From: an uncultured bacterium
GTDB taxonomy: Bacteria; Desulfobacterota; GWC2-55-46; JAJCZF01
Length of the DNA stretch: 64,000 nucleotides
Assembly (NCBI GenBank): GCA_965372515.1
Contig: CBDVCO010000001.1
Coordinates: forward strand, 686 to 64,685
Reading direction: 5' to 3'
The notes beneath the pieces are model-generated. The model ran no database searches and was not told where the DNA came from. It saw only the letters and a list, made by a program, of their open reading frames with translations. Position 1 is the first letter of the stretch, and every line of letters begins with the position of its first letter. A program made the position numbers and the translations under genes. Positions 55,634 to 58,300 of this stretch are shown here, in pieces.

Positions 55634-55667
55634 TGATATAAACCTCCTCTTCTTTGTTTAGACGCAT

Positions 55668-55712
55668 AAAAAAAGGGCGCCTTCCTCAATAGAGAAAGGC
55701 GCCTTTGCCTTC
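55668..55712 (-). terminator. Intrinsic terminator between amt (upstream) and glnK, only about 35 nt before the glnK RBS.
   Basis: On the minus strand: extended GC stem around the GGCGCC palindrome, followed by U7. Confidence 0.65.
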
Positions 55713-55783
55713 TTTGAAAAAACTTCTTAGGAAAGTATACTGCCCCGTATACCCCGTTTATATTGCCTTAGCCTGGCACTCCC

Positions 55784-57133
55784 CTAGAGCGAATAACCGC
55801 GCTCTCCGTGCTGGCTTAGATCAAGACCTTCCACTTCCTCTTCATTTTCTACCCTGAGCCCGCATATCGCCTTGACTATCATCAGTATTATAAATGTAGC
55901 GACTACCGCGAGAACAATCGTCGCAACAACACCCACCACCTGTATACCGAATTGCTTGGGGTTGCCGAAGAACGCCCCCTTTGCGCCGACCGAGGCGAAA
56001 AGCCCTGTTGCGAGAGCGCCCCATATGCCGCCTATTCCATGGATGCCGAATACGTCGAGCGAATCGTCATACCCGAGCTTGGGCTTTAGCCAGCTTACGG
56101 CAAAGTAGCAGAGAACCCCGGCTACGCCGCCCATGATAATCGCGCTCATCGGACCGACAAAGCCCGCGCCGGGAGTGATCGCCACAAGGCCTGCCACAGC
56201 CCCTGATACCGCACCGAGGACAGTCGGCTTCCCTGTCTTTATCCACTCCGCACAGGTCCATGTAAGGGCCGCCGCCGCTGCCGCCGTGTTGGTGGTGACA
56301 AAGGCGAGTGCCGCGAGGCCGTCCGCGGCGAGCGCGCTGCCCGCGTTAAAGCCGAACCAGCCGAACCACAGGAGCGCCGTCCCGATCACGGTAAGCGTCA
56401 GGTTATGCGGCATCATCGCCTCCCTGGGATAGCCCTTCCTCTTACCTATAACTATGGCGAATACGAGCGCGGAGACGCCAGAGCTTATATGAACGACCGT
56501 TCCGCCGGCGAAGTCGAGAGCGCCCATAGTGCCGAGCCAACCGCCTCCCCATACCCAATGGCATATCGGGTCATAGACGAATGTCGCCCAGAGAATACTG
56601 AAGATGACGAATGCCGAGAACTTTATCCTCTCGGCAAAGGCCCCTGTTATAAGCGCCACGGTAATGATGGCGAACATGCCCTGGAACATCATAAATGTAT
56701 AGTGCGGTATTGTGCCGCTCGCCTCACTGCCCACGCCGTTAAGCCCGAAGTATGAAAGCCCTCCGGAGAGCCCGCCCAGGATGTCCGTTCCAAAAGAGAG
56801 GCTGTAGCCCCAGACAACCCATTGTATGCTTATAAGGCAGAGAATAAAGAAACTGTGCATTATGGTTGCGAGCACGTTCTTTGTGCGCGCCATGCCGGCA
56901 TAGAAGAGACCGAGCCCCGGGATCATCAGCATCACGAGCGCCGTAGAGATCATTATCCAGGCCGTATCACCGGAGTCTATCTGAGCTTCCCCGGCCAGGG
57001 CCGTATCGGCCAGGGCCAGGACTATCAGGGTAATAATTGCCGGCCATCTTGCCGCCGCGTAAAACTTTCTGAGTATTTCTCTTTTAGTATGCGTTCTTAC
57101 CGGTCGAATCAAAGCACCTAACAACATTGTCAA
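55784..57133 (-). CDS. amt: Ammonium transporter (Amt family), second copy.
   Basis: Amt family pattern; paralogue of 53878..55206. Confidence 0.85.
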   Translation of the reverse strand: MTMLLGALIRPVRTHTKREILRKFYAAARWPAIITLIVLALADTALAGEAQIDSGDTAWIMISTALVMLMIPGLGLFYAGMARTKNVLATIMHSFFILCLISIQWVVWGYSLSFGTDILGGLSGGLSYFGLNGVGSEASGTIPHYTFMMFQGMFAIITVALITGAFAERIKFSAFVIFSILWATFVYDPICHWVWGGGWLGTMGALDFAGGTVVHISSGVSALVFAIVIGKRKGYPREAMMPHNLTLTVIGTALLWFGWFGFNAGSALAADGLAALAFVTTNTAAAAAALTWTCAEWIKTGKPTVLGAVSGAVAGLVAITPGAGFVGPMSAIIMGGVAGVLCYFAVSWLKPKLGYDDSLDVFGIHGIGGIWGALATGLFASVGAKGAFFGNPKQFGIQVVGVVATIVLAVVATFIILMIVKAICGLRVENEEEVEGLDLSQHGERGYSL

Positions 57134-57228
57134 GTTTCCTTCCTTTTAATTATGGCCTCAGCGCCTGCTGCTCAAAAAAGAAAGCCGCTAAATTTTATTG
57201 CTGCCTGTTAAACTACCTATATAAAACT

Positions 57229-57984
57229 CTAGAAACCCACGGAAATACCAATGCCGCCATAGATCACGCTGCTATCGCCATCAGCGTCTATTGCTTTTAG
57301 AGCGTCCTCGGCATCGTCGGAGAGTGCGAAGCTATAAGCTACCATCGGTGTGACCACGATATTTTCATCAAACGGTAAGGCAAAGGGCACGGAGGCCGAG
57401 ACCTCGCCGTTGTAGAGGGCCGTAAAGGCGTTGCCCGTGCTATCGGTGCCCAAGGCGAACTCATTTTCGAAATTCGCGCTGGCCGACGCTCCGAGGCTCA
57501 CAACGATGCCGTCGGCGACCTCCAGATCATGGCCAATGGAAGCGACCGCGAAAGTGCCGCCGGTATCCTGCTCGATATCCGTGTAAATTGTAACGTTCGG
57601 GCTAAGAAAGGTGTCGTAGCCGACGCTTATATATATCTCCTGGGTGTCATCGATCCCGGCACCGGCGAGCGAATAATATATATAGCCCACGTCAATCGAT
57701 ACCTTATCTATGGCACGAGAGTAACTGACCGTAAGGTCGGTCTCGGTATTGATCTGTGTCTCTGTATCGTAATTCGCCCACAGATTTACGGTTATAGGAC
57801 CGTATGTACCCTCAACCGAAGGCTGCAGTACAAATGAATCGTCGCTCAGTTGAGTGCCCCTCCATACGTACTGACTCATGTAATCCACACCGAAACTGGC
57901 CGACGTATCAACGGCCTGGGCCTTAAGCGGAATCAGTGAAAAACCAAATGCAATAATCGCTAAAATTAGAATCCTGATCTTCAT
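57229..57984 (-). CDS. Putative outer-membrane beta-barrel porin encoded upstream of amt.
   Basis: Signal peptide (start at MKIRIL, AGGAGG SD), alternating beta-strand pattern, C-terminal Phe. Confidence 0.5.
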   Translation of the reverse strand: MKIRILILAIIAFGFSLIPLKAQAVDTSASFGVDYMSQYVWRGTQLSDDSFVLQPSVEGTYGPITVNLWANYDTETQINTETDLTVSYSRAIDKVSIDVGYIYYSLAGAGIDDTQEIYISVGYDTFLSPNVTIYTDIEQDTGGTFAVASIGHDLEVADGIVVSLGASASANFENEFALGTDSTGNAFTALYNGEVSASVPFALPFDENIVVTPMVAYSFALSDDAEDALKAIDADGDSSVIYGGIGISVGF

Positions 57985-58143
57985 TCCCTCATCCTCCTGA
58001 AAACATCCTCGGTTAAAAATCCCTAAATTTTCCGATAGCCTCCAGAACGCCGTAAATGCCAAAGACGCTCCTTAATATAGGTCGTTAGCTTAGAGTAACG
58101 GCCTGACATATAAAGGCGCCTTTGCCTTAAAGTCGATAAAAGC

Positions 58144-58176
58144 CTGTTTCATGAAAAAGACCCGGCCACGACCATG
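58144..58176 (-). promoter_or_regulatory. Leader hairpin with an AUGGUC hexaloop followed by a U-tract (terminator/attenuator-like), about 25 nt after the predicted sigma-54 start site.
   Basis: Minus-strand RNA: CCGGCUAC-AUGGUC-GUGGCCGG then UCUUUUUC. The loop has A1/G4 as in ANTAR-target hexaloops. Confidence 0.4.
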
Positions 58177-58210
58177 TAGCCGGAAGTTGCTTTATCTCTT
58201 GATATGTAAA

Positions 58211-58225
58211 GCAACTAACGTGCCA
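58211..58225 (-). promoter_or_regulatory. Sigma-54 (-24/-12) promoter TGGCAC-N5-TTGC directing the porin-amt operon.
   Basis: Minus strand reads TGGCACgttagTTGC, a perfect consensus. An NtrC-type regulator is encoded nearby. Confidence 0.65.
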
Positions 58226-58300
58226 ACACAAAATCTAATTAAAACAAACAGTTAGGGGGTAGGTTTGGAGTAAAAATGCCTTGAATTTAAGCAGGGTTGC

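Follow-up and report, generated by a model that had tools for sequence, protein, structure and literature searches.

How does a transcript get through an operon that carries a strong terminator between its own genes? We met this question in a stretch of 64,000 nucleotides (hereafter the window) from an uncultured bacterium of the Desulfobacterota (GenBank assembly GCA_965372515.1, contig CBDVCO010000001.1, positions 686 to 64,685 of the forward strand), where a porin-like gene, two ammonium transporter genes and a P-II gene stand in the order porin-amt1-glnK-amt2 behind a sigma-54 promoter. A first-pass annotation of these letters had described this gene set, had placed a terminator between amt1 and glnK, and had proposed that a nearby ANTAR-type regulator relieves termination as GnfR does in Geobacter. 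We find that an RNA box almost identical to the GnfR binding site occurs twice in the operon, once in the leader and once before glnK. At each place it is the second of two hairpins with six-base loops, and at each place it shares bases with a terminator. The gene families assigned at first pass were confirmed, and the operon is laid out as follows.

58211-58225, minus strand: sigma-54 (-24/-12) promoter TGGCACgttagTTGC of the operon, predicted start near 58199
57229-57984, minus strand: first gene of the operon, for a porin-like outer-membrane protein (TIGR02001/Gcw_chp family)
55784-57127, minus strand: amt1, ammonium transporter (PF00909, 2.5e-135)
55295-55633, minus strand: glnK, P-II protein (PF00543, 3e-33)
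53878-55206, minus strand: amt2, ammonium transporter (PF00909, 8e-114)

One repeated box and two terminators

The exact 17-mer AAGGCAAAGGCGCCTTT is found twice on the minus strand, at 58112-58128 and at 55695-55711. When up to three mismatches are allowed the window holds five matches, a number that none of 100 shuffles reached. As RNA, the 17-mer folds into AAGGC[AAAGGC]GCCUU, a 5-bp stem closed by a hexaloop with A at position 1 and G at position 4 (A1 and G4), which is the recognition signature of ANTAR proteins (PMC3369931; PMC8934654). At both sites AAGGCAAAGGCGCC agrees in 13 of 14 bases with CAGGCAANGGCGCC, the RNA site bound by GnfR of G. sulfurreducens, a REC-ANTAR protein that binds it once phosphorylated by GnfK (Ueki & Lovley 2010, PMC2995071). 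Where the window has A as the first base of the box, the Geobacter site has C; in the syntenic locus L028 the box before glnK, CAGGCAAAGGCGCC, matches the GnfR site in 14 of 14 bases. The pattern AGGCAANGGCGCC also matches exactly at both sites. A third match to it, at 7467-7479, was set aside as chance, being the antisense of P-loop codons in a coaE-like open reading frame.

The box and its surroundings form the following elements.

58161-58184, minus strand: leader hairpin P1, UCCGGCUAC[AUGGUC]GUGGCCGGG (-15.3 kcal/mol; hexaloop 58170-58175, with A1 and G4)
58153-58160, minus strand: U-run UCUUUUUC directly after P1, from the terminator scan
58113-58128, minus strand: leader hairpin P2, the GnfR box AAGGC[AAAGGC]GCCUU (-5.3 kcal/mol; hexaloop 58118-58123, with A1 and G4)
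58060-58124, or 58050-58124 with its tail, minus strand: predicted leader terminator T1 (-24.7 kcal/mol; tail UCUUUGGCAUUU)
55733-55754, minus strand: hairpin P1' before glnK, GGGUAUAC[GGGGCA]GUAUACUU (-7.8 kcal/mol; hexaloop 55741-55746)
55696-55711, minus strand: hairpin P2' before glnK, the GnfR box AAGGC[AAAGGC]GCCUU (-5.3 kcal/mol; hexaloop 55701-55706)
55676-55703, or 55667-55703 with its tail, minus strand: predicted intrinsic terminator T2, GGCGCCUUUCUC-UAUU-GAGGAAGGCGCC (tail CUUUUUUUA, U7)

The two modules thus have the same build, P1 with P2 in the leader and P1' with P2' before glnK, and the window contains four short hexaloop hairpins where the first-pass annotation had found a single convincing one. 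In the leader, P1 begins about 15 nt, and its loop about 25 nt, downstream of the predicted transcription start. This hairpin, its distance and its tail UCUUUUUC, all of which had been described at first pass, were borne out. A U-rich linker of 32 nt (28-36 nt in related leaders) leads from P1 to P2. The bases that make up the loop and 3' arm of P2 also serve as the 5' arm of T1, a long hairpin that had gone unnoticed, so that a closed P2 would prevent the terminator. P2 and the terminators are mutually exclusive folds, at -5.3 kcal/mol for P2 versus -24.7 for T1 and -23.6 for T2, and P2 and terminator share bases at every terminator-bearing site.

Before glnK, the linker between P1' and P2' measures about 20-23 nt (13-15 nt in L028) and the 5' arm of T2 overlaps P2'. 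T2, with 12 pairs of which 8 are G-C, tops the terminator scan for 53-60 kb, which agrees with the strong internal terminator called at first pass. The distance of about 35 nt then given from this terminator to the glnK Shine-Dalgarno sequence was slightly off, since T2 ends about 18 nt before that sequence and 34 nt before the ATG. The earlier argument that this leaves no room for a glnK promoter is upheld: none fits in the ~18 nt gap, and no internal sigma-54 promoter scoring above 4/10 was found before amt1, glnK or amt2. Therefore, glnK-amt2 would depend on read-through. As for P1', the element GUAUAC-GGGGCA-GUAUAC that had been offered as a weaker second candidate folds as a hexaloop hairpin; its place is that of the upstream member of the pair, and the box AAGGC[AAAGGC]GCCUU next to it had been missed.

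A few other elements of the operon were considered and discarded. A hairpin GAAGCUAUGGCAGGUUC followed by U5 in the glnK-amt2 spacer is conserved in neither L040 nor L041. A small open reading frame could start at the ATG in the P1 loop, but this ATG is not kept (ACG in L040 and L046). A search of the leader against Rfam returned no match to an ANTAR family. Its only match on the operon strand, to narK at 21 bits versus a gathering score of 43, rests on the sigma-54 promoter contained in that model, and a weaker mir-4904 match on the opposite strand is attributed to chance.

The porin-amt1 spacer holds a further, degenerate hairpin, CAGGC[GCUGAG]GCCA (57149-57167, minus strand), which stands alone and has no terminator. 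Relatives carry in this spacer a lone, well-conserved AAGGC[AAUGAG]GCCUU, also with no terminator and about 25 nt before the amt1 start (L040 1365-1380; L041 5974-5989; L045 797-812; L046 1753-1768; L167 12508, as AGGC[AUUGAG]GCCU). A possible function is that of an ANTAR site with a single hexaloop that affects translation. In some relatives amt1 and glnK are also separated by an additional amt gene (L040 2755-4231, L041 7364-8845, L045 2186-2384, L167 13949-15369) that comes with its own GnfR box, AAGGC[AACGAC]GCCUU, and terminator; the window has neither this gene nor its checkpoint. Which hairpin serves the extra site as P1 is ambiguous, the candidates being a GUAAW pentaloop and a GAUGNN hexaloop that has a mismatch.

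Conservation in related loci

Relatives were reached through homologues of the porin and are syntenic loci from metagenomes or metagenome-assembled genomes (MAGs). Porin identity is 66-86% in L040-L046 and regulator identity is 82% in L167, while L028, labelled 'Deltaproteobacteria bacterium', has the gene order glgA-ANTAR-glutamine amidotransferase-porin-amt-glnK-amt-thiE. Up to nine of these loci retain the two modules, the sigma-54 promoter and the terminators. The first-pass annotation had tied its proposal to the conservation of the hairpins in orthologous leaders, and P1 and P2 are indeed both kept there. The leader alignment gives the consensus G[C/U]UAC[A-N-N-G-N-N]GU[G/A]G[C/U] for P1 and [A/G]AGGC[AA(A/G)G-N-C]GCCUU for P2, together with the sigma-54 promoter and a terminator overlapping P2. 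Of the 8 aligned leaders, 7 have a P1 loop of the form A-N-N-G-N-N, and every one has G4. The base at loop position 5 of P2 can be G, U, C or A, and it covaries with its partner in the 3' arm of T1, giving G-U, G-C and A-U pairs. T1 is the consensus structure in five relatives. RNAalifold, applied to all seven P2-terminator segments, returned only P2 because the terminators differ in length; the five long ones fold consistently. A run of U4-U7 follows T1 in L041, L042, L044 and L046, and is strong in L042 and L044.

Five loci (L040, L041, L044, L167 and L028) retain the pre-glnK module, including a hexaloop hairpin at the place of P1' and the terminator T2, whose distal stem has a wholly different sequence in L028. 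The loop at the P1' place has A1 and G4 in L028 (AACGUA) and L167 (AAGGUU); across the loci G4 is kept and A1 is often missing. P2 is far more uniform: its hexaloop has A1 and G4 at 18 of 18 collected sites, with the stem fully paired (100%) at each one, and the GGC/GCC part of the stem is invariant.

The first-pass annotation had asked for a covariance-model search of both leaders for ANTAR motifs. A model built from the seven leaders alone recovers the pre-glnK site of the window (55690-55754, 28.2 bits, E ~1e-4) as well as the pre-glnK sites of L040, L041, L044 and L167, and finds no further site in the 64 kb window. Weak matches in L010 and L034, of Nitrospirota, were rejected as they lack P2. 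In the seven-leader alignment 90.8% of the cells are paired, compared to 37-59% when the partners are slid, and three pairs show double changes. For the 18 sites the corresponding values are 93.4%, 39-57% and eight pairs, and none of 500 shuffles reaches the observed values, although this larger alignment was fitted to the model and so leans towards structure.

The box is absent from 38 other porin loci obtained by a genome scan, mostly from Nitrospirota. A metagenome scan for AAGGCAANGNCGCCTT gave 120 matches, almost all of them chance occurrences outside any amt, glnK or ANTAR context. The one that looks real is in L132, where positions 1-1400 hold a glutamine amidotransferase gene, an ANTAR regulator gene, a sigma-54 promoter (CGGCACggcggTTGC), a GnfR box, a terminator and an unknown gene, in this order. 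The single box, AAGGC[AACGAC]GCCUU, starts about 17 nt past the promoter and has no P1, an arrangement which suggests that one hexaloop may suffice in some targets.

Porin-amt-glnK clusters of Nitrospirota are built differently. Their sigma-54 promoter is followed by a small gene for a stand-alone Fis-type helix-turn-helix (HTH) protein (...ARAARKLGITERMIGYKIKKYGI...) in L001-L004, L009, L013, L016, L023, L024, L026 and L033, 265-357 nt ahead of the porin gene. What looked like long sigma-54 leaders in these loci encodes this protein, so they were rejected as leaders, and their promoter-to-porin stretches contain neither a GnfR box nor an Rfam match.

Promoters, regulators and the proposed circuit

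The genes and sites that could control the two checkpoints are the following.

59032-59604, minus strand: REC-ANTAR response regulator, GnfR-like, putative antiterminator (Pfam)
59620-59634, minus strand: sigma-54 promoter TGGCATcatatTTGC of the ANTAR regulator gene, conserved in L041, L042, L028 and L167
50619-51710, plus strand: NtrB-like kinase, PAS-HisKA-HATPase (Pfam)
51710-53137, plus strand: NtrC-like sigma-54 activator, REC-sigma54 AAA-HTH_8 (Pfam)
58277-58293, minus strand: candidate NtrC-type box TGCTTAAATTCAAGGCA, centred 62 bp ahead of the GG in the operon sigma-54 promoter
59697-59713, minus strand: candidate NtrC-type box TGCCTAAACTTTAGGCG, 73 bp ahead of the GG in the regulator promoter
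50596-50612, plus strand: candidate NtrC-type box TGCCTATTATTTAGGCA, overlapping a sigma-70-like promoter directly before the ntrB-like gene

The regulator, the NtrB/NtrC-like pair and the operon promoter had all been named at first pass and all stood up. The regulator has a Response_reg domain (2.3e-27, residues 4-114) and an ANTAR domain (1.1e-20, residues 132-184), and aligns over its full length to Rv1626 (4e-44) and EutV (7e-34), including the DLVLMDV motif with the predicted phospho-acceptor Asp. A local scan of the 64 kb for kinases and receiver domains found the NtrB-like protein as the only kinase and receivers only in the NtrC-like activator and the ANTAR regulator, with no third receiver domain. 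The regulator gene has no cognate kinase gene as its neighbour, and the window does not encode the kinase that would phosphorylate the regulator.

The operon promoter is the only exact match to TGGCAC-N5-TTGC in the window (0.04 expected), and seven related loci have an equivalent in the corresponding place, that of L043 with a degenerate -24 element; L167 also has one. At the regulator promoter, the ATG of the regulator gene lies 15-16 nt past the -12 GC in all five loci with this promoter (window 59604-59634; L041 ~3512-3560; L042 ~287-320; L028 ~1777-1808; L167 ~9971-10003). Its mRNA would therefore have a leader of only ~4-5 nt and be nearly leaderless, which is unusual among sigma-54 transcripts.

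The box pattern TGCYTAAA-N4-AGGCR has four matches in the window, at exactly the three places listed, and none of 100 shuffles gives four. The position before the operon promoter is kept in L040-L044, L046 and L167, and in L167 all three places are occupied (11388, 9892 and 20535). The box stands 73 bp from the GG at the regulator promoter versus 62 bp at the operon promoter, one helical turn more. Its ends have the form TGC-N11-GCA, which we take to resemble enterobacterial NtrC sites, the consensus used for comparison being enterobacterial. The distribution over three places would tie the NtrBC-like pair to both sigma-54 promoters by presumed binding of the activator, and the box before the ntrB-like gene suggests that the NtrC-like regulator may autoregulate its own operon. 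The hairpin GCCUAAACUUUAGGC with a U-run that ends glgA (59696-59714) is identical in sequence to the regulator promoter's box; this element may be terminator and activator site in one.

Taken with the anatomy of the two modules, their conservation and their match to a biochemically defined site, these features make it probable that nitrogen limitation is answered here by a two-tier circuit like that of GnfL/GnfM-GnfK/GnfR in Geobacter. When nitrogen is limiting, the NtrC-like activator (51710-53137) would bind the TGCYTAAA-N4-AGGCR boxes and turn on both the regulator promoter (59620-59634) and the operon promoter (58211-58225), in a coherent feed-forward loop. The operon transcript would then meet two checkpoints, each made of P1, a U-rich linker and a weak P2 that shares bases with a terminator. 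If the regulator is absent the terminators would form, and transcription would stop in the leader or after amt1. If it is present, the phosphorylated dimeric regulator would bind the hexaloops, hold P2 closed and block the terminator, thus allowing read-through of T1 into porin-amt1 and then of T2 into glnK-amt2. The first-pass inference of a GnfR-like ANTAR cascade under an NtrBC-like system and sigma-54 is thereby supported by the match to the GnfR site, the overlap with terminators and the RpoN-driven regulator gene.

Several observations weigh against this circuit. T1 joins a strong stem to a weak U-tract in the window (UCUUUGGCAUUU), and P1 of the leader is itself terminator-like, which ANTAR binding would not relieve. 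In EutV, linkers of 5-12 nt work and those of 3, 14 or +20 nt abolish antitermination (Ramesh 2012, PMC3369931; Walshe 2022, PMC8934654), compared to 32 nt in our leader and ~20-23 nt before glnK, although this requirement for a short linker is established in EutV alone. The loop of P1', GGGGCA, keeps G4 and has G instead of A at position 1, and mutation of A1 in loop 1 lowers induction in EutV (PMC3369931; PMC8934654). The covariation among the seven leaders taken by themselves is not significant, as 35-202 of 500 shuffles reach the observed values. Finally, the regulator is likened to GnfR by its REC-ANTAR architecture and its site, not by protein orthology. Sites of the GnfR class might have a different geometry from EutV, with P1 set 20-36 nt away from P2 by a U-rich spacer in a scheme of 'pause, load, then hand over'. 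We hold this to be unlikely; if true, the spacing of 5-12 nt would not be obligatory and the leader P1 would double as a pause or partial terminator. Alternatively, the GnfR box might suffice alone and P1 have another role.

The role of the leader P1 is the point on which we depart most from the first-pass annotation, which took the AUGGUC hairpin and UCUUUUUC (58153-58184) for the leader terminator that the ANTAR protein relieves. The hairpin does look the part: with 9 pairs, 6 of them G-C, -15.3 kcal/mol and a U-run, it is one of the two best terminator-like sites in 53-60 kb, and the U-run recurs in L040, L042 and L043, which gives P1 a predicted terminator-like or pause-like character in the window genome. 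Yet the U-run is weak or absent in L041, L044, L046 and L028, where the hairpin is kept, and every relative has a separate terminator overlapping the GnfR box further downstream. Moreover, ANTAR proteins stabilise hexaloop hairpins and block terminators only by sequestering one of their arms, so that binding to the AUGGUC hairpin would not melt it. A regulated terminator at this place is thus decidedly improbable. We read the hairpin most likely as the upstream P1 of a dual-hexaloop ANTAR site, a putative recruitment hairpin whose competing terminator is T1 at 58060-58124; it may also serve as an unregulated attenuator or pause site.

The box itself could be thought of as DNA rather than RNA, since AAAGGCGCCTTT is a perfect 12-bp palindrome at both sites and might serve a dimeric transcription factor as roadblock or operator. 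In relatives, the central GGCGCC becomes GTCGCC, GCCGCC or GACGCC at loop position 5, which breaks the palindrome and keeps the RNA hairpin with A1 and G4, hence the operator reading was rejected. The conserved flank AAGGCAA is also asymmetric, both sites are transcribed and lie immediately 5' of terminators, and the sequence is that of the RNA site bound by GnfR. All this leaves a DNA operator scarcely credible. It is only slightly easier to see T2 as a constitutive partial terminator, or a stabiliser of the mRNA 3' end, that sets a fixed ratio of porin/amt1 to glnK/amt2 while the regulator acts elsewhere. Internal partial terminators are common, and the kinase and true targets of the regulator are putative assignments. 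The GnfR box and its upstream hexaloop hairpin are nonetheless kept at this place in five other loci, even in L028 with its different terminator stem; the same box recurs in the leader, beside the regulator gene, and the covariance model places no other site in the window. We regard a constitutive T2 as very unlikely and retain regulated read-through at both checkpoints as the best account of the operon.

The surroundings of the operon add the following genes.

58301-59011, minus strand: class-I glutamine amidotransferase, flanked by the ANTAR regulator gene and the operon promoter, in synteny in relatives
59700-61202, minus strand: glgA, from the gene list of the region

On the plus strand lie the genes of the NtrB-like kinase and the NtrC-like activator and thiE, and the other neighbours in the window are housekeeping genes. 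The stand-alone glutamine amidotransferase gene (58301-59011) sits beside the ANTAR regulator gene across the clade, and such a gene also adjoins amt/glnK clusters in the Nitrospirota loci L009, L013, L016, L025, L029 and L038. This placement hints at a role in the handling or sensing of nitrogen or glutamine. Near the end of the window, a multihaem cytochrome c gene (62887-63933; matches to Cytochrome_C554/C7 and MtrC-like proteins) is consistent with a metal- or sulfur-respiring host of the Thermodesulfobacteriota type.

Comparison with known systems

The closest parallel is the Gnf system of Geobacter, headed by the NtrBC-like pair GnfL/GnfM. According to the 2010 paper, CAGGCAANGGCGCC lies there upstream of terminator stems and overlaps them, one GnfR target operon consists of a hypothetical protein gene followed by glnK-amtB, terminators precede internal genes, glnB has no terminator, gnfR has its own RpoN promoter, and gnfR is unlinked to gnfK, the gene of a sensor-less kinase (PMC2995071). 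The window shares with this description an NtrBC-like pair, RpoN promoters on the targets and on the regulator gene, a REC-ANTAR regulator, an RNA box overlapping a terminator stem, targets of the glnK/amtB type, and a kinase gene that is not adjacent to the regulator gene. It differs in its lineage, a group of uncultured MAGs of Thermodesulfobacteriota or 'Deltaproteobacteria', in the order porin-amt-glnK-amt with the regulator gene 1 kb upstream of the target operon, and in having no nif genes in view. The P1 hexaloop hairpins that we describe find no mention in the sections of PMC2995071 consulted.

With EutV/EutW of Enterococcus faecalis the window has in common two short hexaloop hairpins, with A1 and G4 in leader P1 and in both P2 copies, of which the second overlaps the 5' arm of the terminator, several sites in one gene cluster, and a regulator that aligns over its full length (E 7e-34). 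Unlike EutV, it has linkers of 20-32 nt (13-15 nt in L028) against a strict 5-12 nt, a pre-glnK P1 loop without A1, sigma-54-dependent promoters, and nitrogen status as its proposed signal instead of ethanolamine and AdoCbl. NasR/NasT and AmiR also provide ANTAR-mediated read-through of leader terminators in nitrogen genes controlled by NtrC and sigma-54, with A1 and G4 important, but they sense through a NIT domain, a NasS partner or an AmiC partner and not through phosphorylated receivers, and their targets are nitrate and amidase genes. Rv1626/PdtaR of M. tuberculosis (PDB 1s8n) is the closest solved structure by sequence, aligned over its full length (E 4e-44); actinobacterial ANTAR targets are described as working chiefly through translation, at ribosome-binding sites, whereas the sites of the window overlap intrinsic terminators.

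These comparisons extend GnfR antitermination from Geobacter to an uncultured lineage of Thermodesulfobacteriota known here only from metagenome assemblies. The set is compact and unusually complete, with an NtrBC-like pair, three NtrC-type boxes, two sigma-54 promoters, a regulator and two checkpoints in ~10 kb. For annotation, glnK-amt2 should here be treated as conditionally co-transcribed with porin-amt1. The natural variants among the relatives, with long linkers and P1 loops that lack A1, could be used to test how general the spacing rule of EutV is. Judged from its folds and alignments, the window shows how the GnfR box of 2010 would correspond to the second hexaloop of a dual-hexaloop ANTAR site in the style described in 2012. 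The operon is thus a further clear example of the mechanism described in 2010, and not a new mechanism.

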